The notes below the pieces were generated by a model. That model saw only the letters and a list, made by a program, of their open reading frames with translations. It was not told the origin of the DNA and made no database searches. This document shows positions 6,710-24,421 of a stretch of 25,427 bases of DNA, piece by piece; within the stretch, counting starts at the first letter, position 1, and each line of letters begins with the position of its first letter. The stretch is from positions 1 to 25,427 of IMG/VR virus record IMGVR_UViG_3300005804_000004; one strand, given 5' to 3'. Both the position numbers and the translations under genes were made by a program. The DNA comes from a virus. Lineage: Duplodnaviria; Caudoviricetes.

Positions 6710-9700
6710 TTGGGCAAGAGTCGTGGCAAGAAGATATTAAGCGTAGTCGGTTTTGCATTCGGTATGGCAAACCCGGCTATGTTTGGTGTTGGTGCTACAG
6801 CATGGTCTACTGGCGCACTAATGGCAGGTCTATATGGTGCGAGCCTTGGTGGCACTCTGTGGAGTGTAATGCATCCACCAAAGACAGAACAGGATTACAG
6901 TCGCTTTGATACAGTGATGAACACAATCAGTACAGAGGCGACGATCACTGTGATTTATGGCATTCGCAAATGGGGTGGCAATCAATCTTGGCACAAAACC
7001 GAGGATGATAATAAGCGAGTCATTAAGGATATTATTATTTGCGAAGGCGAAATAGACAGTATCTACGATCTGAGGGCTAATGATGTAAAGATCGGTGGAT
7101 TGGACAGCAGGGCAACGCTTGAGAACAATGTTGTTCGACACATCATAAAGGACTACTCTATGGCGCAAGATTACCTTGATGCCATCATGGATGAGCAATC
7201 AGATAACCATGTTAATAATTGCTCCTATGTTTTTCATAATGGCGCACCAAACCAAGACCCTCCTAGTAACTGGGAAACAGTCGGTGGCTACAAGAATTGT
7301 GCTTGGTTGAGAGCCACATTGAACCTGTCTGAGAAGCTACAGGGCGGTAACCCCAATATTACCATGCTTGTTAAAGGTAAGAAGGTTTGGGTTTATCGAA
7401 AAAACAGCTCAACAGGCAAGTATGAGTGGTTCTATGAATGGTCAGACAATCCAATTTGGTGTACAAGGGACTTTATGATCAGTGGGCGGTATGGCCTCGG
7501 ACGGTTTATCGATGGGGATATGTTTGATTTGGATGAGCTTGTGGAGGCTGCTGAATATTGTGATCAGAAGGTTACTCGCACTATAACAACGCTATTGAGC
7601 AGCGTTTCTCAGATTGATCGCCACATTGCAGAGGCGCAAGAAGCTCTCGCCGAAAACCCTAATGATAGTGATTTAATCAATAAGATTATTGCTATGCAAA
7701 ATGCAAGGCAGCAATACATCAATGGTCAAATTGATTCAGCACAAGTTGTTGTTACCGAAAAGCGATTCACCTTAAATATGATTATTGACCAACAAAGGTC
7801 TGCCACAGACATCTTGGGGGAAATCCTCTCGAACTTTGGTGGATATTTGGTTTGGAACAATGATAAGCTCTCGATTCGCATCGAGAAATCAACCATCCCA
7901 TCGTATAGCTTTTCGGATGACCAAATTGTAAAAGACTCGATGGAGATAACCCAAACGCCATTATCCGAAACTCCGAACAGATATAGAGTTGGATATTTTG
8001 ATCCCCTCAATAACTGGACTCAAGTTAAGATTCTGATGGAGGACACAGGCGATCAACAAGAGCGCAATAGGATCATTAGCAAGGATGTAACTCTGTCAGG
8101 CGTTGTTAGTCAGGGACAAGCATTGAGGTTAAGCAGGTTCTTTAAAGACCTTAATCGTGTATGCTCCTTGGTTGTTAGCTTTTCAACCGCAACATATGCA
8201 ATGCATCTTGAGTGCGGTGATGTGATTAATATTACTTGGAATGGCATATTTGAGAATAAGCCATTTAGGATTCTTGAGATAGCTGACAATGGTTATGGCC
8301 TTTATAAGATTAAGGCAAGAGAATATAATGACTCCATTTACAACGATGATTTGGGAGCAGAAATCTCAAGCCCTAATTACCTGACCGTTCCGAGTCCTTT
8401 GACTGATCGAGTGCCGGATGTTACGAACCTTTCTCTTAGTGAGGTTTATTATGTCCAAAAAACTGGGGCTTTAGTGTCGTATGTGCAGGGAACTTGTGAT
8501 CTACCTGGCTACACATACTTTCGTCATGCGGTTGTCGAATATAGTGATGACGAGATGCAAAATTGGCACTACCTTGGCACAGTAATTGATGGCAGCTTCA
8601 TTATCCCAAATGTTCAGATCGGCAAAAAATACTACGCTAGGGTTAAGGTTGAAAACACAATAGGCCGTAGATCGTCTGGAGTCATTTCGGCAGGATGCTT
8701 GGTCGAGGGCAAGAATCAGCCACCTAGCAATGTAGATGCCTCTAAATTCCAATATCAGCCCGTATCTGGTGGCTTTTTGTTGACATGGGAGGCTGTAAGC
8801 GATCCAGACCTAGATGGATACGACATCTATCAAGGCGAGAATGGATCATCTATGGCAAGCTCTGTGAGGATTGCAAACAAGCTCTATAGCACTAGCCTAT
8901 TTGTTCCAATTACTAAGGCAGGCGTTTATAGTTTCCACATTGTTGCGGTTGATACATCTGGCAATGTGTCGCAGCTCCCGGCCACCATTTTGGCGCAGTT
9001 TAATGCTCCACCCAATGTTGAGGGGTTTGATGTAGTCATTAACGGCGATGATCTTGATTTCAGATGGCAACCAATTAGCCAAAGTGGCATTCGCTATGAG
9101 ATTCGCCGGGGCGAAGCATGGGGCTATGGGGAACTGATCGGAAAAACAGCAAATGCTTTCTACCGAATCCTATTCCCGGCAAGTGGTAACCATGACTTTT
9201 GGATTAAGGCTATTGATGCTTACGGCAACTACTCCGAGAGTGCAACCCACGCAACAATAACCACGCAGTCATCGATTAATCGAAACATGATTAAAGGTGT
9301 CGATGAGGTTGTTAATGGATGGAATGGCACAAAGATTAACTTCGATGTAGTTGATAACGGCCTCAAGATGGTCAATATGGCTATACGAGGTGAGTATATT
9401 GCCGACATCGACCTGCTGAAAACCTATCTAGCACGAAACTGGATTGACACTAGCGTTACTGGCATTAGTGGTCAGGAAATCGCTTGGGATATGGCGACAT
9501 TCACTTGGGGCAGCGCAGAGGCCAATTCTCCTTGGAAGAGTACGGCAGACATTGATGGGACAACAATCAAACATCAGATTGCCTATTGGAAGGGCGTAAA
9601 CGCCGATGTGGTTGAATCGTTCTCTATGAATGATTCTCTAACTGGTACTAAAGGGATCGCACCATCTCAAAGCCTTGGGGTGACATACGAAGATGGTAGA

Positions 9701-10577: not shown

Positions 10578-13532
10578 ATGTCCACTGTAACCATAACCAA
10601 GAACAGTCCTCCAGACTTGTTTGCAAGTTTTGCATCTGGGTTGGAGCTGATCAAGAGGGATGGCAATTCTGTCACTCCCTCTTCTGTTTCTTCAGTTATT
10701 TTACCTAGCGGTAACGGATTGCTACTGCAAGAGTCTGATATCGCAAATCTCGTTACTGATCCAAGCTTTGACTCAGTAAGTCAGTCATATAGCCCCGGTT
10801 GGGATACTGCGATCAACGGCAATTTGGGTCTTAATAACTGGTCGCTTTACAACGGTGGTGTCCCTAGTCCTAGCGTGGGCTACCATGCTAATGTTGATCC
10901 AACTGGTGGTGTAAATGGTGCGTACTGCCTTGTGTTTCGAGATATTAATAGTCAATATGGTCAAGCACACAGATGGCTAGGCGCAAGCCAAGGCCTTGGC
11001 ACTCCAAGCTCTCTAGGATGGGCTGTTGGCGATAAAATCACTATTGGTGTTTTATTTAAGGCAGACAACATAGACAAAGCAATTACCATTGGCATTTATC
11101 ATTACAATAATCCAACATCAGGTAATGCGTTTGCTGATGCGATTGCGACGATCTACCCAACGAAAGTAAACGAATGGGAGTATGCAACATATACATTCAC
11201 GATTACTAGCGATTGGGGATTGACCAGTGGTTGCTCCTTATATATTTATGGTCATTATTATAGGAATGGCGCAGAAGGTACTGTTTGGGTGGATCGGGCG
11301 TTTGTTCAAAAGAATGGATTTCCAATTTTCCCTTCTGGCGAATCCAATGCAGGAAGGGTGGAATATACTCTTGATACGCCACCACAAGACTTCACAGTAT
11401 ACTTTCGGTTTAAGCCTAGCTGCCAATACTATAATGATGGGTTTCTTACTGGTGGATATAATCGGATCATGGCAAGTATGATTGATGCAGATGGTGTTAG
11501 GCGAATTGACTATACGGACTATGTTCCGTCACCATCGACATCGCTTACTTACTCAGCACCGTTTTTTGACTTAGAGCCAAACAGCTCTTGGGACAATTTG
11601 CAGCACCACTGGCATCACAATTTGGCCTATGTGAAGAATAAATGGCATGATGTTTTCTTCGTGAAGAGTGGTAGCACATTGCGAGTCTATATTAAACTCG
11701 ATGGCATAGTTCTTAGAGATGCAACATTTACTTACTCCGATAGCTCTCTTATGAGCAGCTTCGTGTTATCCAAAATTCGCCTTGGTTATACGACAAATGG
11801 AGTGTGGTGCGGTGCTTTCCGTGATTTAAGCATATTCTCAAAAGCCCTAGCAACAAGGGAGCTTGACGATTATGTGAATAGAATTGGTACTTATATGCAG
11901 TGGCTAGAATCGTCTTTCATGTGGACGGATTCAAGCGGTGCAAAGTCTTGGTTAGATGAGTATTTTTCATCTTACTACTTGAATATATTGGAGGATGGCG
12001 TTTCCATTACCGATAAGTCCATCAAGAATGCCACGAAAAAGGCATTTGAGAGTTTTGCAACAGCAGACTATGGGGACAAGTTTACCATGACTAAAATCCT
12101 CAAGGATTCAGTTAACTTTGCCGAGGCATATATAGACAATATTATGTTTATGCTTCGAGCATATGAAACGATTGCATTCGCAGAAAAGAATCCTAAGACG
12201 GTCTTCACTATTCCTAAAGAGGTGTTTAGCGTTACCGATCTTGGCAAAAAGCAGATTTTACTGCCAAAGCATGAGTCATTGGCCTTATCAGAATGGTACG
12301 CAAAGACCTCTGCCAAGGTTACCAAAGAGTCTGTATCGTTTGCAGAGCTAGTTCCAAAGCAGATGATCGATATTTTAGCTGATGCTTTCGGTGTGGTTGA
12401 TAATAAGCAAGAAAAGCAGGTGTCGAAGGTCAACAAGGAGATACTGACTTTTGCCGATCTGCCCAAAAACGCATTCACTATGCCGAAGTTTGAGGTTATT
12501 TCAGTGTCCGATACTGGAGGTAGAACGGTAGGGCTGCTAAAGAAAGAGTCCTTTGGTATTGTGGAAACAAAACTGCCCAAGTCAATGACTCGTGTCAACA
12601 AGGAATACCTCAATATTGCAGAGCTTTATTCTGACATTATTGGGTATATCTTAAGAGTGTATGAGGCAGTCAGTCTTACTGAAAGGCATCCCAAGTCCGT
12701 AAACACGCCCAAATATGATTCATTCGGCATCAGCGAGGTTAAGCAGCCGAAGACAATCGGGGCTGTTCGGTCTGAAGCAGTGAATGTGGCTGACAAAAGT
12801 ATTAAGACCGCAACTCACATCGAAAAAGAGGCGATTTCTTATGTCGATACGGTCTTGAAGCTGCCTAGCATTCTAAAGAAAGAGAGCCTTGCAACAACTG
12901 ACAAGGCAATCAAAAGCCCCACCAAGAAGTCACTAGAAACTGTGGCCTTCTCCGAGGTTTATAAGGATACAATCGCATTTAATCGTATATTCAGCGAAAC
13001 CGTCACTCTTCTCGACAGGCTAGTTAAGAATTATGGCATGAAGAAGTATGAGGCGATTCAGCTAGTTGATGATATTATACGGAATGCCAATGCTGTACTA
13101 AGCGACCTAGTGTTTACGGATGCAGCGATCACACTTGATGAGTTTGTGGCACGGACGAGTTCGCCAGAGGGGTATGAGCAGTTTAAGGACTTTATTCCAG
13201 GCGATCACAACTATCAAAAAGCCTTGATTCGGACTGTGGTTGAAACCTACGCAACAGGCGGTAGGCCATATCTTAATAAGTGGATGCTCAATGTTGATGT
13301 GCCGGATGTGAAGGATTCTGGATCAACATCAATATCTGCAGTGACCACAAAGGTATATTTCAATCGCACATTTATTGAGCCACCAGAAGTGCAAATCACA
13401 TTGAGAGGTGGCACAAGGGGCTTACCATGCATTATTAATATTACACCAGAATACTTCGAGGTTGAGCTTGTAAATCCAACGACCAATGAGTTAATTGCAG
13501 GATCATTATCTTGGAGTGCAACTGGTTACTAA
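10578..13532 (+). CDS. Large tail structural protein / adhesin: carbohydrate-binding-like and LamG/ConA-like domains, degenerate repeat region, beta-rich C-terminus, 984 aa
   Basis: GGGGTGG RBS; NLVTDPSF...WEYATYTF...VWVDRAFV (CBM-like); FTVYFRFKP...WHDVFFVKSG..LRVYI..DG...FRDLSIFSKAL (LamG-like); K..E....D repeats. Confidence 0.7.
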   Translation: MSTVTITKNSPPDLFASFASGLELIKRDGNSVTPSSVSSVILPSGNGLLLQESDIANLVTDPSFDSVSQSYSPGWDTAINGNLGLNNWSLYNGGVPSPSVGYHANVDPTGGVNGAYCLVFRDINSQYGQAHRWLGASQGLGTPSSLGWAVGDKITIGVLFKADNIDKAITIGIYHYNNPTSGNAFADAIATIYPTKVNEWEYATYTFTITSDWGLTSGCSLYIYGHYYRNGAEGTVWVDRAFVQKNGFPIFPSGESNAGRVEYTLDTPPQDFTVYFRFKPSCQYYNDGFLTGGYNRIMASMIDADGVRRIDYTDYVPSPSTSLTYSAPFFDLEPNSSWDNLQHHWHHNLAYVKNKWHDVFFVKSGSTLRVYIKLDGIVLRDATFTYSDSSLMSSFVLSKIRLGYTTNGVWCGAFRDLSIFSKALATRELDDYVNRIGTYMQWLESSFMWTDSSGAKSWLDEYFSSYYLNILEDGVSITDKSIKNATKKAFESFATADYGDKFTMTKILKDSVNFAEAYIDNIMFMLRAYETIAFAEKNPKTVFTIPKEVFSVTDLGKKQILLPKHESLALSEWYAKTSAKVTKESVSFAELVPKQMIDILADAFGVVDNKQEKQVSKVNKEILTFADLPKNAFTMPKFEVISVSDTGGRTVGLLKKESFGIVETKLPKSMTRVNKEYLNIAELYSDIIGYILRVYEAVSLTERHPKSVNTPKYDSFGISEVKQPKTIGAVRSEAVNVADKSIKTATHIEKEAISYVDTVLKLPSILKKESLATTDKAIKSPTKKSLETVAFSEVYKDTIAFNRIFSETVTLLDRLVKNYGMKKYEAIQLVDDIIRNANAVLSDLVFTDAAITLDEFVARTSSPEGYEQFKDFIPGDHNYQKALIRTVVETYATGGRPYLNKWMLNVDVPDVKDSGSTSISAVTTKVYFNRTFIEPPEVQITLRGGTRGLPCIINITPEYFEVELVNPTTNELIAGSLSWSATGY
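11980..13080 (+). repeat. Degenerate protein-level tandem repeat, roughly 18-20 aa period, about 20 copies
   Basis: Units such as KKAFESFATAD, KILKDSVNFAE, KVTKESVSFAE, KVNKEILTFAD, LLKKESFGIVE, ILKKESLATTD, KKSLETVAFSE; boundaries approximate. Confidence 0.7.
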
Positions 13533-13545
13533 GGGGGTAATATGG

Positions 13546-14973
13546 ATGCAACAATTTACTGATATTCCATCCACAGAGACATTGGTAAATAGTCGCCAGA
13601 AATTAATTGATAACGATAAAACGATAATGAGTTGCCATGCAGGAACAACCGCACCGACTACTAACTTGGTAGTCGGTATGTTGTTTCTGAACACTTCTAC
13701 TTGGCAATTATTTCAGCTTAAATCTCTTACGCCAGATTGGAAGTTGATCTTTGATCTTTCTAAAACGGCGGTAAGCCAAGAGTATGTTGATACAGGCCTC
13801 TCTGGTAAGGTTGATAAGACATCTTCGGCTAGGCCGGGTGTAACGAAGCTTTATCGCAAAGACAATGATTCGGCCTACAATGTGCAGGTTGAGTGGGATA
13901 ATACCTATTGGTATTTGAAAGGGTATAATGGCGACACTTATCATGCAGGTGTTCGAGTTGCGAGAGCTGACTCTGTTGATTGGTCTGGTGTGCAGAATAA
14001 GCCATCTACATTTGCTCCTCCTGTTGCAACGGCCTCTGTGCTTGGCGGTGTGAAACAGGGGTCTGGATGCTCCATTGCAGCAGATGGCACTCTCACTATT
14101 AACTTCCCGGCAGGATTCAGTTTAAGCAATACGATTACCGTAACAGGCAGCAATCAGGGTGATTCGTATGAATGTGTTACTTGGCAAGTATCCACATCTA
14201 ACAAGGTAAGTAACAATGTTAGCTGGGGTGGCACGACTGTACCTGCTGAGTTTCAGCCAATTGAAGGTATTGACGGCTCTTGGCCTGCGAGTCAGCAAGT
14301 ATACTATTGGCAAGTGAGACAATATCGCAGAACTGGCGTTGCCGGTGGTACTTACACCCTGCAAAGTCTACTGCAGGAACTCGTTAGTAAGTCACATACT
14401 CACGCTCATCGTGAGAATAGATATTATTGGAACTGCGATTGTACCTGTTCTGATAACTGCCTCGTGAGGGGAGTTAGGGTTTTAATGGCTAATGGCTCAT
14501 ATAAGGCTGCAGAGTTGGTTGAAATTGGCGAGAAGATTATTGGTAGAAACGGAGTAGTCAATACTGTTATTGCTAAGAAGTTCTCCACCCTTGGCGATGA
14601 CAGGGTTGTTATGACAATGGCTAATAACCGCAAGTTGCGTTTTACCGGAGAACATATGCTGTGGGTTAAACAAGATGACATTGAGGGGTGGGGCACTCAC
14701 AATATTAATGACTACCTTAAGATCAATAAGGGTTTTGTTGTTGATGGCATTGAGTATTCGTATGATCTGGTAGAGTTTGGGCAGGATATCCCCTTAATCT
14801 TGCAGCGTGGTGAATCCTATTTGACGGAGAATGGTTTTGTCATCGACACCGCAGTTGTCGCAAGAGAGTACGGTTCAGATACGGAAACGGTAACACTGGC
14901 AGTCGATGGCGATGGCAGTTGCATTGCAGAGGGCTATGTGGTTCAATGTGCGGTCAGAAAAGGTGGTGCTTAA
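13546..14973 (+). CDS. Tail fibre protein with His/Cys-rich tip motif and C-terminal Hint (Hedgehog/intein) domain, 475 aa
   Basis: AAGGGGGT RBS supports ATG 13546; fibre-type repeats (WSGVQNKPSTFAP, ATASVLGGVKQGSGCSIAADGTL); HTHAH and YYWNCDCTCSDN; then CLVRGVRVLMANG (Hint block A) and FTGEH (block B). Confidence 0.8.
   Translation: MQQFTDIPSTETLVNSRQKLIDNDKTIMSCHAGTTAPTTNLVVGMLFLNTSTWQLFQLKSLTPDWKLIFDLSKTAVSQEYVDTGLSGKVDKTSSARPGVTKLYRKDNDSAYNVQVEWDNTYWYLKGYNGDTYHAGVRVARADSVDWSGVQNKPSTFAPPVATASVLGGVKQGSGCSIAADGTLTINFPAGFSLSNTITVTGSNQGDSYECVTWQVSTSNKVSNNVSWGGTTVPAEFQPIEGIDGSWPASQQVYYWQVRQYRRTGVAGGTYTLQSLLQELVSKSHTHAHRENRYYWNCDCTCSDNCLVRGVRVLMANGSYKAAELVEIGEKIIGRNGVVNTVIAKKFSTLGDDRVVMTMANNRKLRFTGEHMLWVKQDDIEGWGTHNINDYLKINKGFVVDGIEYSYDLVEFGQDIPLILQRGESYLTENGFVIDTAVVAREYGSDTETVTLAVDGDGSCIAEGYVVQCAVRKGGA
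14458..14949 (+). other. Hint autoprocessing domain within the fibre gene
   Basis: Cys1 at 14458, TxxH at 14644-14655, C-terminal TLAVDGDGSCIAEGYVVQC matching the Hint terminal strands but without the canonical His-Asn. Confidence 0.8.
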
Positions 14974-14974
14974 T

Positions 14975-15811
14975 ATGCTAAAGATTTGGCATAACCCAGA
15001 AAATAACAATCCTATTAATAGCTTATGGGTTGATTTGCAGGGGAGTGTTTTATCAATCACGGTTGGTGAAAGAAAGCTTGACGATGAAACAGGAGAGGCT
15101 GTGGGAGAGCCGATAATTGGTTCTCCTAAATCAGTTACACTGAAACCGTACTCCTCATACTTGCTCATTAAGTCAGAAGGCCTTGCCGATAAGGTCAACG
15201 GAGTAATCCAGTATACTGATTGCAGATTTGTAGAAGTTCCCAAGCTAACCATGTCAAGTCGGTCAAAATACTTTGAAGCAGAAGGTCTTTTTTTGCATGG
15301 AAAAAATCTTGTGCAAATTGACACTGGGATTATTGCAGAGGACTTAAGAGAGATCGCAATTCGTATAAATTGCGCCCCAATCTCTAGCGTTGATATTAGT
15401 GCAGATATGCAATATGAGTTAGCTGAGTACGGCAAGAATATTATTCCATTTCCGAGATTGGAGCTTTGGGATAGGTATGCATTAGTACTTGATGGTGTTG
15501 AATATATGGCAGACCAAGATGGAAACACAATTGGCAACCCAATCTCCACAGTAAGATTCGATGGTGAATATATTGATATTGGAATCCAGAAATATGAGGC
15601 AGACTTTTCGGAGCAGCGCAATGAGGACTATGATAACGAGGAAGTTTTCATTGAGGTCACTTCTGGGTTTGCAAATACCACTAGAGTCAAGCTGATCAAC
15701 GGAGTAGGATCGTTTAGATGGTATCCATTTGGTTATCGTGGTGAATTCAAAATTAAGCTTGGGCGAAAATTCTATCCCGGTTGGTGCGAATATTCTCTTA
15801 CAAAGGAGTAA
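14975..15811 (+). CDS. Hypothetical beta-rich protein of the radical SAM cassette (Ig-like C-terminus), 278 aa
   Basis: AGGTGG RBS, start 1 nt after the fibre stop; C-terminal EVFIEVTSGFANTTRVKLINGVGSFRW...KIKLGRKFY looks all-beta. Confidence 0.7.
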   Translation: MLKIWHNPENNNPINSLWVDLQGSVLSITVGERKLDDETGEAVGEPIIGSPKSVTLKPYSSYLLIKSEGLADKVNGVIQYTDCRFVEVPKLTMSSRSKYFEAEGLFLHGKNLVQIDTGIIAEDLREIAIRINCAPISSVDISADMQYELAEYGKNIIPFPRLELWDRYALVLDGVEYMADQDGNTIGNPISTVRFDGEYIDIGIQKYEADFSEQRNEDYDNEEVFIEVTSGFANTTRVKLINGVGSFRWYPFGYRGEFKIKLGRKFYPGWCEYSLTKE

Positions 15812-15814
15812 TGC

Positions 15815-16852
15815 ATGAAGAAAATTGTTATATATTGTGGCAGTCGATGCAATGCAAGCTGTTCGTATTGCCACAGAAAGATCGATGAGGAAGGTGCAAG
15901 CCTTCCTCATTCTGTTCTTGCTTTTATTAAACAGCAAACCAATAATGAGCAAACGATGGTTCGTTTCGTAGGAGGAGAGCCAACGCTTTATTTGCCACAA
16001 ATAAAAGAAATCGTTTCAGCTAGTGCTGCCGGAACGGATTTCCTCATTTCTACGAATGGCCTCTTGCTGAACAATCAGGAGATTATCAACTATCTTAATA
16101 GCAATGGTTTTTTCATTTCTATTAGCTATGATGGACAAAAAGGCGGTAGAGGATATGGCAATATCTTGGTAAATCCAGAGTATATCCCGCAAATCCGCAA
16201 AATAGATAGATTGGGCTTTAGCACGACACTAGCAAAAGATAACCTTAACCTCTCTCTCTTGCTTGAGGAGTGGGGCGAAATAGAGAATGTTATAAAAAGA
16301 CCGATGCGTTTTAGACCTCATCATTGTCATGTCACCAAGCCAGAGGGCGCACCATATAACATGACACTTGACGAAATCAAACACTACACAGGCCAGTGGC
16401 AATCGCTAATCGGAGAATTCATGCGCTATTATGCTGAATATGGCTTGGCGAACATGAAGTTACTAAATATGTTCTATTATCTTTACGATAGGGTCAATGG
16501 CTATAAGCACTCACAATCAGAAACTAGATGCTTCTCTAAAGGGTGCATCCAAGTAGACTTAAAGGGCAAGCATCATATTTGCCCATACATTAGAACACCA
16601 GAAACTTACCTTGGCGAGGTTGGCGAGGATATTGAAGTCTTACTGCAAAGACAAGCAGAGATGATACGCAGCCGAAGACCAAAATGCCTTGGTTGTGACC
16701 TATATCCATACTGTGGAACATATTGCTTTGCATCTATCAGACCAGAAACCGAGTGCGAGGTGCAAAAGAGATTGATTGGTTGGTTTATTAATGAGCTTGG
16801 CAAGTACGAAGATGGTTATTTTGACAAAGTAAATATGCTTCGGAGGTACTAA
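15815..16852 (+). CDS. Radical SAM enzyme with SPASM-type auxiliary cluster domain (1), 345 aa
   Basis: CNASCSYC (CxxxCxxC), GGEPTL, STNG, ISYDG; C-terminal RCF...ICPY...CLGCDLYPYCGTYC...C. Confidence 0.92.
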   Translation: MKKIVIYCGSRCNASCSYCHRKIDEEGASLPHSVLAFIKQQTNNEQTMVRFVGGEPTLYLPQIKEIVSASAAGTDFLISTNGLLLNNQEIINYLNSNGFFISISYDGQKGGRGYGNILVNPEYIPQIRKIDRLGFSTTLAKDNLNLSLLLEEWGEIENVIKRPMRFRPHHCHVTKPEGAPYNMTLDEIKHYTGQWQSLIGEFMRYYAEYGLANMKLLNMFYYLYDRVNGYKHSQSETRCFSKGCIQVDLKGKHHICPYIRTPETYLGEVGEDIEVLLQRQAEMIRSRRPKCLGCDLYPYCGTYCFASIRPETECEVQKRLIGWFINELGKYEDGYFDKVNMLRRY

Positions 16853-17514
16853 TGTTTAAAGACTTTTTTGTTTTTCATGGAAGTGTCCATGCTGATGGGC
16901 TTTTATCTTGCGATATTTACAATGATAAATATGTAGTTCGGTTTAATAACAAGGAGTTTGTTTTGCTACTAAAAGATCTGAAAGAGGATTCGGTATTCGT
17001 ATTAATGTACGACAATGCCACAGACGAGCTGATCCCATTCTATAATTGGGATAAGTTACAAGCCCTCACGCAGCTACAGTCGATGGAACTTCTGCAAGCT
17101 TTGCAGCAAAATGCTTTTTTTCAGCTTTATTACTATGGTAAACGCCCATTTGTTAAGGTGTTTTTGCCAATTAATCAGCAAACCCTAATGTCCAATACCC
17201 ATAATTTTAGCCAAAACCTATATTGGCCTACAGATATGATTCACCCACTTGACTACTTGTATATTCCAACATTTGAGATATTAACTGCGGAAGTGAGTGG
17301 GGGTATGGTGACAATGGAGATTGATATTGTCCCATCTGTGCATAGAGACAATATGTACTTATCTTACGGTGGTCGAGCGATATCTGTTCAGCCAGGTAGG
17401 CAAATAGTCACCCTACCATACGCACCCGGCGAGAGGGTTTATGTGGGTGCAAAAGACAACCGCAAAAAGGGATGCTCATTCGATCTGGAGGGATTACTAT
17501 GTATACTCAATTGA
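16852..17514 (+). CDS. Hypothetical protein translationally coupled to radical SAM 1, 220 aa
   Basis: TAATG overlap, GGAGG RBS; no recognised motif. Confidence 0.7.
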   Translation: MFKDFFVFHGSVHADGLLSCDIYNDKYVVRFNNKEFVLLLKDLKEDSVFVLMYDNATDELIPFYNWDKLQALTQLQSMELLQALQQNAFFQLYYYGKRPFVKVFLPINQQTLMSNTHNFSQNLYWPTDMIHPLDYLYIPTFEILTAEVSGGMVTMEIDIVPSVHRDNMYLSYGGRAISVQPGRQIVTLPYAPGERVYVGAKDNRKKGCSFDLEGLLCILN

Positions 17515-18482
17515 GGTTATTGATGCCAGAAACGAACTGCAACTTAAGCTGTAAGTATTGCGCTGCAGGGTATTGTGATGCTGCCAAAAAGGAAAGCACT
17601 TTAGACTTCAACGAGGAGAAGGTTTTAAGCACTATTGGCGATAAGCAGTTTAGAGCAATATCAATATGGGGTGGAGAACCATTTGCCAATATGGAGAAAT
17701 TGCAACGGACGGTTAATTTTTGCAAGGCGCATTTTCCAGACAAGCCAACATCTATTCTATCCAATGGATACCTCCTTAATGATCAAATTGTGTCCTTTCT
17801 TAATCGCAATGATCTTGCTTTAGCGATATCTCACGATGGCGTTGGTCAGCATTATCGTGGTGCAGACTTCTTGAAAAGTGAGCAATATATAGAGCGACTA
17901 AAGAGAGTAAATAACTTTATAGGATTCCACTCGGTTATTCATAATTTCAATTGCGATATTCCGGCTATTGTTGAGTACTTCGACAATGTTAAGGAACGAC
18001 TGAATAGGGAGTTTATTTGGGCATTTGGAAATTTTAAGATTTACGATCATAGGTTTCTGGAATTTGTTCCTCATGGTGACTCTCTTGAAAAACTAGCGTA
18101 TTCGTTCAGGTGGGTATTGCAAAGATTTGCGAAGCAGCCAGGATATATTAGCCTCGAAAGGCAGCTATCTGGCATTGCAAAATTGCTTGACTCGAATAAA
18201 TCTAGGATTGTTTCTTGTGGTGCAGATAACCGCTTGACTGTCAGAATGGATGGGTCACAAGCATATTGCCAAGTCCGTGGCGAACTTGGGATGCTGGATA
18301 ATCCTGATCTTTCGACTCCAATGATGTGCAGAAGTTGCACATATGTTGGGCTTTGCGCCGGGATTTGCCCCAGTATGAACGATGCATATCGGAAAAAGGT
18401 ATGTGCCACCTATAAAATTTGGTATCGAGAGGCTATTGCCTTCCTCAATTCATTAAGGAGAGATTCTAATGAAAATCAATAA
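17499..18482 (+). CDS. Radical SAM enzyme with SPASM-type auxiliary cluster domain (2), 327 aa
   Basis: GGAGG RBS supports ATG 17499; CNLSCKYC, WGGEPF, LSNG, ISHDG; SCG...YCQ...CRSCTYVGLCAGIC...C. Confidence 0.92.
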   Translation: MYTQLRLLMPETNCNLSCKYCAAGYCDAAKKESTLDFNEEKVLSTIGDKQFRAISIWGGEPFANMEKLQRTVNFCKAHFPDKPTSILSNGYLLNDQIVSFLNRNDLALAISHDGVGQHYRGADFLKSEQYIERLKRVNNFIGFHSVIHNFNCDIPAIVEYFDNVKERLNREFIWAFGNFKIYDHRFLEFVPHGDSLEKLAYSFRWVLQRFAKQPGYISLERQLSGIAKLLDSNKSRIVSCGADNRLTVRMDGSQAYCQVRGELGMLDNPDLSTPMMCRSCTYVGLCAGICPSMNDAYRKKVCATYKIWYREAIAFLNSLRRDSNENQ

Positions 18483-18780
18483 GCTGACAGCGCAGGTAGT
18501 CGATAGGGACTACCTTTTATTTTTCGATGGCAAACCTGTTGGATCGTATGAAATTGCGAAGTTGCCAAACGATACATTGATTGTGTGGGATTCACGCACT
18601 TGCACCTTTATAGATGGCAAATCTCTCTTGGAGCTTGCTGAAAAGACGCAGAACTCGCTTAGAACAATTGCGTTAACAATGAGGATGTATCCAATCTTAT
18701 CAACTATTGGTGGTAAGTGCGTGTTTTACAATATCTCAAATACTCAGCAGGGAGGGGATGCCACAAGATCAAAAACATAG
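18469..18780 (+). CDS. Hypothetical protein coupled to radical SAM 2, 103 aa
   Basis: AAGGAG RBS, overlaps the end of rSAM 2; weak similarity to the N-terminal half of 16852..17514. Confidence 0.65.
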   Translation: MKINKLTAQVVDRDYLLFFDGKPVGSYEIAKLPNDTLIVWDSRTCTFIDGKSLLELAEKTQNSLRTIALTMRMYPILSTIGGKCVFYNISNTQQGGDATRSKT

Positions 18781-20511: not shown

Positions 20512-20546
20512 TGGGACTAGGCTAAATGCTTAGTCCCACCTTTTTT
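20512..20546 (+). terminator. Intrinsic terminator ending the late (tail/lysis) operon
   Basis: TGGGACTAGGC / GCTTAGTCCCA stem (one G-U), 5-nt loop, then CCTTTTTT. Confidence 0.85.
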
Positions 20547-20622: not shown

Positions 20623-20781
20623 ATGTTGAGCTACAGTCAGTGCTACAATGAGGAATGCGGAGTTACCTGTCGCAGATGCTTGGCCTTTGAAACGAGCCAT
20701 AGCTTAAAGGCGACAAAAGGCATTAAAACTGCATCTGTAAATAAGGCCAGCAAATCTAAGCTAAAAGAGGTGAACCAATGA
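20623..20781 (+). CDS. Small Cys-rich, basic-tailed protein, 52 aa (MLSYSQCYNEECGVTCRRCLAF...)
   Basis: AGGAGG at 20611-20616, first ORF after the promoter, ATGA overlap with the next gene; absent from the ORF track. Confidence 0.7.
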   Translation: MLSYSQCYNEECGVTCRRCLAFETSHSLKATKGIKTASVNKASKSKLKEVNQ

Positions 20782-21191
20782 AGATTTTAGTATGCGGTGA
20801 CCGCAAGTGGTCTAACATTGAGAGCATTCGCAAGGCAATTGAAGAGGTTCGTATGCAGTACAGCAATGAACAGAGCTTCACCATTATTCATGGGTGCGCC
20901 ACTGGCGCAGACACCCTTGCCGGGGAAGTTGGTAAGGAGCTTGGCCTTGAGATTATGGAGTTCCCGGCTAAGTGGCGTGAGTGGGAAGACAAGCCAGAGT
21001 ACCAAGTGGGAGAAGTAAATGGCAGGAAGTACTGGAAACTTGCCGGGGTAGTGCGAAACACTGAAATGCTTAAGGCGCAACCAGAGGTAGTGCTAGCATT
21101 CTACAATGATATCTCCAAATCCAAAGGTACTCTCGATATGATAAAACAGGCCAATAGAGCAGGTGTGGAAGTAAGACTTTACGCAAAATAG
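20778..21191 (+). CDS. SLOG-superfamily protein (DUF2493 / YspA-like), 137 aa
   Basis: KILVCGDR, IIHGCATGADTLA, FPAKW, AGVVRNTEML and SKGTLDMI motifs. Confidence 0.85.
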   Translation: MKILVCGDRKWSNIESIRKAIEEVRMQYSNEQSFTIIHGCATGADTLAGEVGKELGLEIMEFPAKWREWEDKPEYQVGEVNGRKYWKLAGVVRNTEMLKAQPEVVLAFYNDISKSKGTLDMIKQANRAGVEVRLYAK

Positions 21192-21256: not shown

Positions 21257-24200
21257 ATGGACAGATTTGTTAATATCCATGTTCATACTCACTACTCAAA
21301 TAATAATATGTATGACTCCACGGCAACTGTTGAAGCTGTCGTAAAAAGAGTCAAGGAGCTAGGCCAAACTGCTTTTGCAATCACTGACCACGGAACAGTG
21401 TCCGGCCTAATTGATGGCTATAAAGAGGCCAAGAAGAATGATTTGCATTTTGTCTTTGGCAGCGAGTTTTACTTTGTCCCAGAGGTTGGGATCAAGAACC
21501 GGGACAGTTGGCATTTGGTACTGATTGCAAAAGATAATGAGGGATACAAGAACCTGCTTAAGCTCACCACATTAGCTCACCAGAACTTCTACTATAAGCC
21601 AAGGGTTGATTGGGATATGCTGAAGGCGCACAGCAAAGGGCTGATTGCAACTTCTGCTTGCCTTGGTGGGGTACTAAATATGAGGAATGAAGGTGCGTGG
21701 GATCAGGACGCTAGCACCTATCGGCTTGAGCAGTTCTTAGATATTTTTGGTGGCGACTTCTATATTGAGCTACACACAAACCAAATGAAAGATCAAGTCG
21801 CTCACAATATTGCCATGATTGATATGGCTGAAAAGTTTGGTGTTCCGCTTATTGCTTGCGTCGATAGTCACTATGTCAGGGAAGATCAGTACAATGTTCA
21901 TAAGGCGTGGGTAGGAATTGGCGATAACGATGAAAGAGGGTATTACTCAACAAATGACTACTTCCTTATGTCATCCAAGCAAGTGCATGACAGGCTTATG
22001 TACCTTCCTCAAGATTGCGTTTCCAAAGCGATTAAAAATACTTCGACATTGGCAGATAGATGTCATGTAGAAATTGATTTCAAGTCCAAGCACTATCCTC
22101 ATTTCCCTGTGCCGGAGGGCATGACTCATCTTGACCGAATGAAAGAAATCTGCCGGGAAGGATGGAAGAAGAAAATTATTCCCCATGTTCCTAAAGAGCA
22201 ATGGCAGCTATACGGAGATCGGGTTAATGAGGAGTTTGATGTTCTTCAAAAATGCGACTATGTTGAATATATGCTGATTGTGCATGATATGCTTGATTGG
22301 TGTAGAAATCGTGCCAACCCCAAGATTATGACAGGTATTGGTCGGGGATCGGTTGGTGGTAGCTTGGTAGCTTACCTGATGGACATTACCAAGATTGACC
22401 CTATTAAGACGGACTTGCTGTTTTCTCGCTTTACACACACGGAACGCATTAGTCCACCCGACATAGACTCGGACATTGAAAAGGCTAGGCGAGAAGATGT
22501 TATTGAGTATGTCCGGCAGAAGTACAATGGCGATGTATACCATGTTCGCACCTTCTCCTATATGGGCGCAAGGGGTGCGCTTAAACGAGCAGGTCAAGCA
22601 CTTGGCTTACCTCACGATCAGATTAATAAGCTGTCAAAGACAGTTAATCCAATCTCAGACAAATACAAGGATCAGGTTGATGCCTTGGAGGAGATCAGAG
22701 ATAAGGCAAACGGCGATCTTATCGATCTTGCCAAAGAACTCGTCCATGTTATTCAAGGCTATTCAACCCATGCGTCAGCAATTATCTTATTCCCGGCTGA
22801 TCCTACTAATTGGGTAGCAATCGAAAGAAACCCCGGCGACTCCTATGTTGTTAGCTATAAGTATGGCGATGTGGAGGCGCAAGGCCTACTGAAAATTGAC
22901 GCTCTTGGCCTCAAGACCCTAGATGTCATCCATAGCACCTTAAATCTTATTGGAAATAAGGCCAATGGGTTTGATATTGAGCATTTGCCAGACAATGATA
23001 AGCTCACATTTGATATGCTGCATGAAGGTAAGACAGCAGGATGCTTCCAGATTGAAGGCCAAGGCATGACTAATCTCGTTAAGAATATCAAGCCAAGCCA
23101 ATACTTTGATATGATCCCTCTTGTTGCCCTGTATCGTCCTGGCTGCTTACAGGCAGGCATGGTTGAGGTTTTCACCAAGCGCAGAAACGGTGAAGAAGAG
23201 GTAGAGTATCTTGATCCTAAAATGAAAGCAGCCCTCGAAGACACTTACGGTGTCATCCTTTACCAAGAGCAAATCCAAAAGCTTGCAAATATTATGGCAG
23301 GGTACAGTATGGGCGAGGCAGACTTGCTGCGTAGGGCTGTTGGCAAGAAAAAGCCAGAAGAAATGGCAGTAATCATCCCTGAGTTCGTCAAGCGTGGGGT
23401 TGAGTGCGGTAACAGCGAGGAAACCATGAAGAAGTTAGCAGAGCTAATCGAGTACTTTGCAGGGTATGGTTTCAATAAGTCGCATAGCGCATCTTATGGC
23501 TATATTAGCTACCAAACGGCTTACCTTAAGGCGCACTACCCAGTTGAGTTTATGACATCGCTTTTGAATGTCTATATGGACTCTCCTCAAGAGGATATCG
23601 TGCCGTACATCAACGAAATTAAGGCTATGGGTATTAAGATACTGCCACCATGCGTAAATCGCTCAGAAGGCAACTGGACAATTGAGAAGCAGTCGGATGG
23701 CACTAAGGCAGTGCGTATTGGCTTGGCGTATTTAAAAGGCGTTGGAAAGGTGGAGTATCCTAGACCAGTATCGAGCATCGGCGACTTGAGGGAGGCTAAA
23801 GTCAATAAGGGCAAGATTGAGGCCATGATTAAGGCCGGGGCATTGGATTGCATTGGTAATCGTGCTGACCTGTTGGTAGAGTTATGGGAAGTCGAAGAAA
23901 CTCTAAAAAGCATTGATGAAAAAATTGCTCATGCAAAGAATCGAATCGATGAGCTGTGCAGCGATATTGAGAAAACCAAACCGACAACAAAAAAATATAC
24001 TCAACTTCAGCAGCAGCTTGCGAACAGAGAGAAGGATGTTGAGAAACTAAATAAGAAGAAAGTTGAAGTTTTCGGCCTCCAAAAAACCCTAAACTCGTAT
24101 AGTGATCCGATTGGAGAAAGAGAAGTCTTAGGGTTTTCATTCACAGACATCTTAGATTGCTATGACTTATCATGCGCTAAAGAACCAAACATTGAGTCTA

Positions 24201-24421
24201 AAATTGAACATATCATTGGTGCAGAAGTAGTTAAGTTCAAGAAGCATATGCAGAAGAATGGCAAGCCTATGGCCTTTATAACTGCTCGAACAAGAAGTAA
24301 GACGGTTGATCTAGTAATGTTCAATAGCTCTTACAGAATCTTGGAGGAAGGCAGAGTGTATCTAATCTCGATTAGAGAAAACAAGGTCACAGATGCAATG
24401 GAGGCCAGAAGAGCAGGGTAA
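21257..24421 (+). CDS. dnaE: DNA polymerase III alpha subunit (family C, DnaE-type), 1054 aa
   Basis: PHP domain (HVHTHYS, ITDHG, SACLGG, DSHY), GRGSVGGSL, PDIDSD, KIDALGL, YQEQI, YGFNKSHS, C-terminal OB fold. Confidence 0.96.
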   Translation: MDRFVNIHVHTHYSNNNMYDSTATVEAVVKRVKELGQTAFAITDHGTVSGLIDGYKEAKKNDLHFVFGSEFYFVPEVGIKNRDSWHLVLIAKDNEGYKNLLKLTTLAHQNFYYKPRVDWDMLKAHSKGLIATSACLGGVLNMRNEGAWDQDASTYRLEQFLDIFGGDFYIELHTNQMKDQVAHNIAMIDMAEKFGVPLIACVDSHYVREDQYNVHKAWVGIGDNDERGYYSTNDYFLMSSKQVHDRLMYLPQDCVSKAIKNTSTLADRCHVEIDFKSKHYPHFPVPEGMTHLDRMKEICREGWKKKIIPHVPKEQWQLYGDRVNEEFDVLQKCDYVEYMLIVHDMLDWCRNRANPKIMTGIGRGSVGGSLVAYLMDITKIDPIKTDLLFSRFTHTERISPPDIDSDIEKARREDVIEYVRQKYNGDVYHVRTFSYMGARGALKRAGQALGLPHDQINKLSKTVNPISDKYKDQVDALEEIRDKANGDLIDLAKELVHVIQGYSTHASAIILFPADPTNWVAIERNPGDSYVVSYKYGDVEAQGLLKIDALGLKTLDVIHSTLNLIGNKANGFDIEHLPDNDKLTFDMLHEGKTAGCFQIEGQGMTNLVKNIKPSQYFDMIPLVALYRPGCLQAGMVEVFTKRRNGEEEVEYLDPKMKAALEDTYGVILYQEQIQKLANIMAGYSMGEADLLRRAVGKKKPEEMAVIIPEFVKRGVECGNSEETMKKLAELIEYFAGYGFNKSHSASYGYISYQTAYLKAHYPVEFMTSLLNVYMDSPQEDIVPYINEIKAMGIKILPPCVNRSEGNWTIEKQSDGTKAVRIGLAYLKGVGKVEYPRPVSSIGDLREAKVNKGKIEAMIKAGALDCIGNRADLLVELWEVEETLKSIDEKIAHAKNRIDELCSDIEKTKPTTKKYTQLQQQLANREKDVEKLNKKKVEVFGLQKTLNSYSDPIGEREVLGFSFTDILDCYDLSCAKEPNIESKIEHIIGAEVVKFKKHMQKNGKPMAFITARTRSKTVDLVMFNSSYRILEEGRVYLISIRENKVTDAMEARRAG

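Follow-up and report, generated by a model that had tools for sequence, protein, structure and literature searches.

Organization of the locus

The window, a stretch of 25,427 nt, is a partial tailed-phage record whose nearest relatives fall in Negativicutes. Between the tail and lysis genes, it carries a cassette of six open reading frames, all on the + strand, in the order fibre–Hint, p278, rSAM1, p220, rSAM2 and p103. Both the cassette and its short spacing, first described in the original prediction, were confirmed, with intergenic distances of 1, 3, −1, −16 and −14 nt. Tape measure, NlpC/P60, hub and J genes lie upstream, and a lysin-type gene with two small holin-like ORFs lies downstream. 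Promoter-like sites are not more frequent in the window than in shuffled sequence. The order of five cassette genes is kept in five relatives, all without the Hint domain.

The fibre-type protein and its cysteine-rich tip

The first gene (13546..14973, + strand) encodes a fibre-type protein of 475 aa, which comprises an N-terminal domain of ~100 aa common to fibre-like proteins, a shaft, a helix-HxH segment, a Cys ladder and a Hint domain. It is homologous to gp28 of Achromobacter phage JWF and occupies the identical gene slot. We infer the fibre label because the protein itself matches no fibre family in family searches; among 22 relatives scanned, peptidase S74 (6), tail collar (2), Gly_rich_2 (3) and Laminin_G_3 (2) domains were detected, and these domains, like gene position, fit a tail fibre, the likely assignment.

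The tip reads SHTHAHRENRYYWNCDCTCSDN, followed by the predicted cut point and CLVRG, and contains H284/H286/H288, C297/C299/C301, D303 and N304, with C305 as Cys1 of the Hint domain. When fibre residues 1-304 were shuffled 20,000 times, CxCxC turned up in 21 cases. Two parts of the tip stand out in alignments. The G-x-Y-x-L...L-Q-x-L-V-x-x-S-H-x-H segment (residues 268-288; 14347..14409, + strand) is conserved in tips, with G268, Y270 and L279 invariant in 14/14 and H284 and H286 conserved at ≥90% among 27, and is a candidate recognition and/or metal-binding element. The Cys ladder, N296-C-D-C-T-C-S-D-N304 (14431..14457, + strand), is the predicted substrate and mature C-terminus, and its C297, C299, C301 and D303 are invariant in 14/14 tips. 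The YYW of the tip is not conserved in alignments of either 14 or 27 tips and the conserved aromatic-x-x core motif is missing, so that the aromatic role raised in the original prediction did not hold and cyclophane (triceptide-type) chemistry was dropped. A PDB sequence search with the tip returned chance crystallin matches alone.

The ladder proteins of the closest relatives (L234, L388) are just 121-127 aa long, and the 'fibre tip' of these loci may therefore be a separate small protein. The 32 virion proteins detected in phage RP31 include no product of ORF68-76 (PMC5468394 Table S3), a table in which the ladder ORF is unannotated.

Two radical SAM/SPASM enzymes without an RRE

rSAM1 (15815..16852, + strand; 345 aa) and rSAM2 (17499..18482, + strand; 327 aa) are radical SAM/SPASM enzymes and candidates for the C-x-D enzyme and the ladder enzyme, respectively. 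They score 45.5 and 36.9 bits against Pfam Radical_SAM (cut-off 29.5), both match PHROG 1802, and the CX3CX2C and GGE motifs are invariant in the alignments of each. The SPASM motif C...G-x4-C...C-x2-C-x5-C-x3-C...C is present in rSAM1 (C239/256/291/294/300/304/314) and in rSAM2 (C240/257/277/280/286/290/302). These seven cysteines are invariant together with C12/16/19 of rSAM1 (26/26 sequences) and C14/18/21 of rSAM2 (5/5), and the seven SPASM cysteines of a third clade are likewise invariant (10/10). The best PDB match of rSAM1 is CteB (5WGG, E 5e-15), aligned from CteB residue 97. An N-terminal RRE is absent from both enzymes, as the SAM motif lies 11-13 residues from the start and CteB aligns from residue 97/106.

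Passages of PMC10177961 assign three cysteines to auxiliary cluster AC1 of CteB and four to AC2, and part of PMC13692751 describes seven SPASM cysteines in CrpC. With seven invariant cysteines, as in CteB/CrpC, the SPASM pattern of both window enzymes fits thioether formers, which upholds that part of the original prediction. The PapB family (NF047865) scores 57.3 and 50.4 bits against a curated cut-off of 340, and none of the 25 curated maturase families listed per enzyme reaches its own cut-off. Enzymes of other chemistries, namely ChlB (9GM3), anSME (4K37), SuiB-type 5V1Q and viperin, score close, and identity to all characterised enzymes is low. These matches, along with the occurrence of 3-5 enzymes per single short ladder in some loci, would suit another radical reaction on the ladder, such as α-thioether formation, epimerisation, terminal-Asp decarboxylation, formylglycine-like Cys oxidation or inter-chain C-C/C-S links. 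We consider this improbable, given that the ladder cysteines are invariant and alternate with Asn/Asp, that the seven-Cys SPASM pattern resembles CteB/CrpC and that the tip aromatics vary. Thioether chemistry is the assignment that we favour, with modest confidence.

Alternatively, the HxH and CxCxC motifs could bind metals or Fe-S along the axis of a trimeric tip, with the enzymes and their partners loading or building the centre and forming no cross-links. HxH metal sites do occur in trimeric fibre tips, for example in T4 gp37, and H284/H286 are conserved next to the ladder. We nevertheless find this explanation quite unlikely, as all aligned enzymes retain an intact CX3CX2C SAM motif, the HxH segment is missing from most main-clade ladders and ladder length varies freely.

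A single-sequence search with rSAM1 found no relative in IMG/VR and one in the protein collection, and alignment queries were therefore needed to collect its relatives. In trees built with FastTree and with IQ-TREE (34 rows), the rSAM1 clade comprises 17 rows with a support of 98, and rSAM2 falls on the side of the single-enzyme JWF/RSP15 clade (SH-aLRT 94/91, unstarred).

Partner proteins p278, p220 and p103

Each enzyme gene follows a partner gene. p278 (14975..15811, + strand) has a beta-rich N-domain with two helices and a C-terminal Ig-like sandwich: in its AF2 model (pLDDT 91.9), residues 166-278 match Ig-like domains in a fold search with a best Z of 9.9 (rmsd 2.9, 93 aligned). A homologue of p278 is present in rSAM1 loci. 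p220 (16852..17514, + strand) is likely its paralogue, based on HHalign (78%, E 1.8e-5) and on an AF2 model (pLDDT 89.6) with the same element order, and the two are likely paralogous partners. The modeled order is six strands, two helices, two strands and the sandwich; that of an RRE is three strands followed by three helices. No RRE/PqqD chain is found among the 50 p278 fold matches listed, a comparison in which residues 165-278 alone were well tested. In ESM Atlas, neither p278 nor p220 matched a named family, and a PDB sequence search with p278 yielded no match.

The last gene encodes p103 (18469..18780, + strand), a small protein of no known family and an optional cassette member. A homologue occupies the same slot of L388 (score 66 vs 24.6±4.5, 0/1000 shuffles; BLASTP gave no alignment), none was seen after rSAM2 in L165, L391 and L393, and a protein search with p103 retrieved itself alone. 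By visual comparison, p103 could pass for a copy of the p220/p278 N-domain, but this was not supported (HHalign <1%, shuffles 11-646/1000).

A Hint domain of predicted cleavage-only type caps the ladder

Pfam and PDB profile matches and alignment identify the C-terminal part of the fibre-type protein (14458..14973, + strand) as a Hint domain of the cleavage-only type, with Cys305, TGEH at 367-370 and no His-Asn. It matches Pfam Hom_end_hint with an E of 5.3e-6, under the family cut-off, and the N-termini of PI-SceI/VMA and Prp8 inteins in the PDB with E 0.002-0.8. Among 22 fused Hints, His B10 is found in 22/22, Thr/Ser B7 in 21/22 and His-Asn in 0/22; the corresponding column of the window Hint reads QC. 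Cleavage-only Hints are defined by Cys1, a block B TxxH and the absence of block G, and type B BIL and Hedgehog Hints, which lack the block G His-Asn, therefore cleave without splicing, as set out in a section of PMC4031507. The window Hint shares these type B BIL/Hedgehog-like features (C305 as Cys1 and a TxxH in block B, without block G). It differs in capping the C-terminus of a phage tail protein, and in close relatives it is absent or occurs as a free gene without Cys1. Protein splicing (class 1 intein or type A BIL) was ruled out as the C-terminal His-Asn is missing.

In the five Hint-less relatives with the same gene order, the substrate ends 1-5 residues past C-x-D, and this natural stop coincides with the predicted cut position at Cys305. 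The domain is predicted to cut itself off at Asn304/Cys305. That cleavage bares the tip, as originally proposed, agrees with the retained Cys1 and TxxH and with this stop. An essential role for the exposing step was not borne out, since these five closest cassettes have no Hint and 11/18 rSAM1-clade loci listed have a free Hint gene, whose Cys1 is absent wherever the gene start is visible. Peptidase S74 fibre chaperones are also self-removing C-terminal caps; S74 is found on other proteins that share the N-terminal domain of this fibre, and some ladders are followed by an S74-like start motif. The fold and chemistry of S74 are unrelated to those of Hint, and S74 is not known to involve a modifying enzyme.

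The ladder could also be excised as a small RiPP-like product, the fibre body acting as leader, or belong to a small protein that is not a fibre and acts in the virion or on the host. Ladder ORFs of 60-130 aa are common, some loci have three ladder ORFs, and the short proteins of the closest relatives point the same way. Classical RiPP clusters combine a small precursor with a peptidase and a transporter, whereas the window cassette has a 475-aa substrate and no dedicated gene of either kind; moreover, ladders terminate 300-700-aa proteins in the fibre slot, and a Hint, S74-like or other cap comes after the ladder in some loci. We therefore give such a product little credence.

Enzymes and cysteine ladders co-occur

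In a dereplicated reverse test, a protein with (N/D)-C repeats at its end adjoins 19/20 rSAM1 orthologues, all rSAM2 orthologues (4/4) and 34/36 members of the wider enzyme clade, compared with 0/44 host radical SAM controls and 0/17 weak-match cellular or metagenome controls. These fractions are inflated, since the rSAM1 and main-clade search seeds were taken from ladder-bearing loci and the best 80 matches were kept. The neighbourhood check suggested at the outset thus came out in favor of the proposed tie between the enzymes and the Cys-rich end of the fibre, a ladder lying beside nearly all orthologues. In the forward direction, an in-frame NCNC motif occurs in 58 of 80 flanked IMG/VR loci, 50 of which have a related rSAM; five of the remaining eight loci end ≤1.1 kb downstream and in three the motif is not C-terminal. 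The cultured phages JWF, 2-1, RSP15 and RP12 carry the same module. L175 and L182 encode a Cys-Gln-repeat protein in place of the ladder, and no ladder lies within 8 kb of the main-clade enzyme in L496.

A terminal C-x-D is present in every locus type that has the add-on enzyme (21/21) and in 0/49 that lack it, an association that is partly post hoc, three positives having been classed after their tails were seen and 18 being supported by score. Seventeen of the 21 positives form one clade, and a tree-aware test retains 4 independent pairs (p 0.125). Among 149 phmmer matches, 0/19 helix-HxH tips follow the C-x-D rule, counted on proteins alone. These sequence comparisons, in part post hoc, suggest that the terminal C-x-D tracks the second enzyme, a relationship that is new here.

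The L496 enzyme and weak viperin and MoaA matches would be expected if the enzymes performed nucleotide, cofactor or host-directed chemistry and merely travelled with the tail module. The co-occurrence in both directions, the C-x-D association and a SPASM pattern of the peptide-maturase type make this very unlikely. As rSAM relatives almost always lie beside runs of cysteines, the phage likely cross-links its fibre tip, and the ladder is very probably the target of the enzymes.

Proposed mechanism

Overall, our sequence analysis leans toward a reading in which two partnered enzymes thioether-link the fibre ladder and the Hint domain cuts itself off. rSAM1 and rSAM2, each encoded behind its partner gene, would install Cys-to-Asn/Asp thioethers on the nine-residue ladder, and self-removal of the Hint at Asn304/Cys305 would make the ladder the C-terminus. 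p278 and p220 may take over from the absent RRE in presenting the tip, probably via the G-x-Y-x-L...S-H-x-H segment. rSAM2 would link (N/D)-C repeats with NxxcB-like spacing, as in N296-C299 and D298-C301, and rSAM1 would be an add-on acting on the terminal C301-x-D303 in a PapB/CrpC-like direction; we rate such a division of labour at slightly under an even chance. The Hint would serve as a removable cap that may also help folding, and the stapled tip could form a rigid end contacting the host.

More tentatively, and with appreciable doubt, we envisage a modular post-translational code for fibre tips in which one clade staples the ladder and a second joins it for those tips, and only those, that end in C-x-D. 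Both would work with a dedicated Ig-tipped partner of a new substrate-recognition type. The Hint cap would also act as a chaperone, and many Negativicutes prophages would retain it as a free gene that is catalytically dead. In that case, RiPP-like macrocycles made by the enzymes would sit at the end of the virion that binds the host.

Relation to known systems

A close parallel is CrpC/CrpA of Methanococcus voltae, likewise a seven-Cys SPASM enzyme with a neighbour-encoded protein, where CrpC puts ranthionines on a Cys-rich C-terminus with C-X-X-Q/D motifs. As described in portions of PMC13692751, CrpC is a single archaeal enzyme (TIGR04463) with an RRE and acts on a 17-residue repeat; here, in contrast, two RRE-less phage enzymes are predicted to act with separate partners on a Hint-capped tail-module substrate. 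CteB/PapB ranthipeptide maturases share the 3+4 auxiliary-cluster cysteines and form Cys-to-Asp links with flexible spacing (excerpts of PMC10177961, PMC10739248), PapB tolerating Cys and Asp from adjacent to six apart (PMC10739248). Unlike them, the window enzymes fall far under the PapB cut-off and have neither an RRE nor a small leader-core precursor. NxxcB joins Cys to the Asn β-carbon and accepts Asp, according to part of PMC9389541; the N-x-x-C spacing of this streptococcal NxxcB/NxxcA peptide system also appears in the window ladder.

Our literature search found no report of radical SAM cross-linking on a virion protein, nor of this system, which is absent from PMC12801897, PMC7029224 and PMC3556154, papers that touch on radical SAM genes of phages or on Hint/intein domains. 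Whole-protein radical SAM cross-linking is rare; besides CrpA, a passage of PMC13692751 names QHNDH, MCR and the ribosome as carrying modifications of a RiPP-like kind. If our reading is correct, phages of aerobic and anaerobic hosts alike would complete a tail protein by oxygen-sensitive chemistry, with consequences for fibre expression, engineering and structure solution. The two-enzyme, RRE-less cassette would be a compact system of a 52-residue tip and four proteins, of which JWF and 2-1 carry a one-enzyme version.

Cassette architecture and fibre assignment

The window, a linear virus record from IMG/VR, spans 25,427 bases and has an estimated completeness of 33%. Family and profile matches identify tape measure, NlpC/P60, hub and J genes upstream of the cassette and lysis-type genes downstream. 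All six genes predicted to lie between them are present in the predicted order: the fibre–Hint gene (13546-14973), the partner gene p278 (14975-15811), the radical SAM/SPASM gene rSAM1 (15815-16852), the second partner gene p220 (16852-17514), the second enzyme gene rSAM2 (17499-18482) and p103 (18469-18780), all on the plus strand with intergenic gaps of 1, 3, -1, -16 and -14 nt. In agreement with the original prediction, the first gene encodes a single 475-aa protein combining an HTHAH motif (residues 284-288), a cysteine-rich end (NCDCTCSDN, 296-304) and a Hint domain starting at its Cys1 (C305). This end is an example of what we call a ladder, a run of (N/D)-C repeats ending the substrate protein; a CxCxC motif arose in 21 of 20,000 shuffles of residues 1-304.

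Family and profile scans of the window proteins gave no fibre-family match to the 475-aa protein itself. We assign it as a fibre from its gene position, its homologues gp28 of Achromobacter phage JWF and gp27 of phage 2-1, which occupy the same gene slot, and the domains of its phmmer relatives (peptidase S74 in 6, tail collar in 2, Gly_rich_2 in 3 and Laminin_G_3 in 2 of the 22 that we selected for scanning among 150 matches listed). A 984-aa protein is encoded at 10578-13532; its homologues in other ladder loci have 394-451 aa and it shows a weak Laminin_G_3 match at 267-428, which suggests that it may carry an inserted lectin-like domain.

Coupling of the enzymes to the cysteine ladder

The cassette is real, and its link to the cysteine ladder is tight. 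Co-occurrence of the enzymes with such protein ends was borne out by a reverse test, in which one alignment each for rSAM1, rSAM2 and the wider enzyme clade served to collect loci (best 80 matches each), which were then dereplicated and freed of those with less than 3 kb upstream (2, 1 and 10, respectively). A ladder lies within 8 kb in 19/20 rSAM1, 4/4 rSAM2 and 34/36 wider-clade loci, rates that are upper estimates because two alignments were seeded from ladder loci and the best 80 matches were kept. Among the misses, L175 has a Cys-Gln-repeat protein in the ladder's place, L525 has a ladder overlooked by the motif rule and L496 has a main-clade radical SAM gene (8001-9296) that lacks a ladder within 8 kb. 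Weak-hit controls, which gauge mainly how often the motif rule gives false positives, had a ladder in 0/44 GTDB (19 dropped) and 0/17 metagenomic loci (29 dropped); weak viral matches had one in 3/5 and 8/45.

In the forward direction, the DNA pattern for NCNC[ND]C[ND]C matched at least 122 loci in 18 of the 64 parts of the IMG/VR collection, 80 of them with flanks. The motif is in frame, mostly C-terminally, in 58 of these 80, and in 50 of the 58 a related radical SAM gene lies on the same strand (raw loci, not dereplicated). Of the remaining eight, five break off no more than 1.1 kb downstream, and the other three have the motif off the C-terminus.

Small Cys-Gln-x repeat proteins, with or without a terminal ladder, occur in L175 and L182 (both 7453-7758), L129, L144 and L162; a single cassette holds as many as three ladder proteins. 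Ralstonia phage RP12 has an unannotated 65-aa ORF (L003:6837-7034) ending in HTH...NCNCNCACTRGSL that immediately precedes a partner gene and radical SAM genes. One phage (L208/L334) bears two cassettes, one in the order p278–enzyme–rSAM1–p220 behind a CGDDGS ladder, the other with another ladder and two further enzymes. Additional genes of 200-250 aa between partner and enzyme in L012, L061 and L065 presumably resemble 2OG-Fe(II) oxygenases.

The two-enzyme ladder cassette is unreported in the literature searched, which took in few subscription papers and no preprint supplements and yielded no account of a virion fibre modified by a radical SAM enzyme. In the accessible text of PMC5468394 the RP12 and RP31 enzymes are only annotated, and its Table S3 has none of RP31 ORF68-76 among 32 virion proteins detected; the available portions of PMC12801897, PMC7029224 and PMC3556154 do not describe the system.

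Closest relatives and conservation of the tip

rSAM1 shares 45% identity with the product of a gene in a Sporomusaceae MAG (L234), and its clade is found in Acidaminococcus and Phascolarctobacterium genomes; judging from these relatives, the host is likely a member of the Negativicutes. The order ladder–p278–rSAM1–p220–rSAM2 is kept in five distinct loci (L234, which ends within rSAM2, L388, L165/L389, L194/L391 and L393), whose substrates end in CGDS, CGDDSH, CSDDGE, CGDDGGE and CGDDCGG. Across 14 tips, C297, C299, C301 and D303 are invariant, as are the upstream G268, Y270 and L279. A role for the aromatic residues of the proposed core found no support, as YYW is not conserved among these tips.

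Enzymes and proposed chemistry

anSME and SuiB display a fully ligated eight-Cys pattern. The enzymes studied here combine CX3CX2C with seven SPASM cysteines that are invariant in rSAM1 (26/26), rSAM2 (5/5) and the wider clade (10/10), a number common to CteB and CrpC. CteB is the best PDB match for rSAM1 and the second for rSAM2, aligning only past the CteB N-terminal region, and neither enzyme reached the curated cut-off of any of the 25 families listed for it. According to the accessible parts of the sources, the auxiliary-cluster cysteines of CteB are arranged as 3+4, with PapB predicted likewise (PMC10177961), CrpC, itself with seven SPASM cysteines, makes ranthionine links on a protein (PMC13692751), NxxcB joins Cys to Asn or Asp β-carbons (PMC9389541) and PapB tolerates Cys/Asp spacings from adjacent to six residues (PMC10739248). 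The cassette lies outside the curated families of CrpC, PapB and NxxcB and would work like them in the proposed chemistry. We consider thioether stapling of the fibre tip the best reading, and a moderately probable one.

Possible division of labour between the two enzymes

In a 120-row FastTree phylogeny, rSAM1 belongs to a clade of 17 rows (98) and rSAM2 to one of 5 rows (99). A 34-row IQ-TREE phylogeny groups rSAM2 and the JWF/RSP15 clade together (94, unstarred); rSAM1 falls on the opposite side with short second enzymes from L064/L065/L494 and L316 (91, unstarred), where long branches meet. The ladder ends in C-x-D in 21/21 locus types with an rSAM1-type second (add-on) enzyme versus 0/49 without (70 types), 17 of the 21 positives forming one clade and the add-on class being backed by profile score in 18 of 21, with three assigned after the tails were seen. 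A tree-aware test (60 rows; 19 add-on versus 18 C-x-D loci) yielded four independent pairs, with a mean of 3.6 concordant and 0 discordant (p 0.125). None of 19 helix–HxH tips among the 149 phmmer matches listed, judged without gene context, follows the C-x-D rule. The putative association of the add-on enzyme with a terminal C-x-D is a lead, not a result.

Fused and free Hint domains

The fused Hint was proposed to expose the tip by cleavage, for which its residues speak: among 22 fused Hints picked with a Cys-first pattern, 22/22 retain His B10 and 21/22 retain Thr/Ser B7, with His-Asn in 0/22. This fits the type B BIL description, cleavage without splicing (accessible text of PMC4031507), the activity predicted here from residue conservation. 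Against a Hint as an essential exposing step, 0/5 same-order loci have one in the cassette; the predicted cut ahead of C305 would produce a CSDN end that lines up with the natural ends of Hint-less relatives.

An unexpected free Hint-like gene (123-140 aa) is present in 11 of the 18 rSAM1-clade loci listed, between the ladder and p278 in the maps viewed. Such genes, lacking Cys1, occur in Negativicutes prophages at L204:7804-8178, L175:7768-8184, L236:7804-8175 and L044:6235-6645 (minus strand), among others. Free and fused forms match by HHalign (96.7%), and the free form matches BIL/intein structures (E 3.5e-4 and 8e-4). In the 15 copies with a visible start, out of 16 distinct ones and leaving L178 aside, it begins with Met/Val-Ile/Val and no Cys, and TxxH is absent from six aligned free Hints. 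Since only fusions keep the catalytic residues and the domain often persists in their absence, the Hint may, as this suggests, have a second, non-catalytic role. P0142 is a fused form of the same subtype as the free genes.

Among 173 distinct ladder ends, 162 are free, 5 are followed by a Hint, 4 by an S74-like domain and 2 by another cap. Other caps follow the ladder in L022, L032, L054 and L541, which we take to be an S74-like SD-x-x-LK start or a K-I-I/V-C domain. The cassette-bearing phage L165 encodes a second, unrelated C-terminal-Hint protein (13477-14610).

Partner proteins and flanking features

The alignment between p278 and p220 is weak (HHalign 78%, E 1.8e-5), and the two predicted models (pLDDT 91.9 and 89.6) have a common order of elements; p278 residues 166-278 are Ig-like in the predicted model (best Z 9.9, rmsd 2.9, 93 aligned). 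With one partner gene ahead of each enzyme, the arrangement suggests duplication of a partner–enzyme unit. The partners may be maturation factors or virion proteins. The p278 profile also matches a protein's C-terminal region in 18/78 main-clade loci, and p103 has one homologue, in the same slot of L388.

A terminator-like hairpin (20512-20538) directly 3' of a 175-aa gene likely marks where the late operon ends. Family and profile matches identify a SLOG-family (YAcAr) gene at 20778-21191 and a phage DnaE-type DNA polymerase III alpha gene at 21257-24421.
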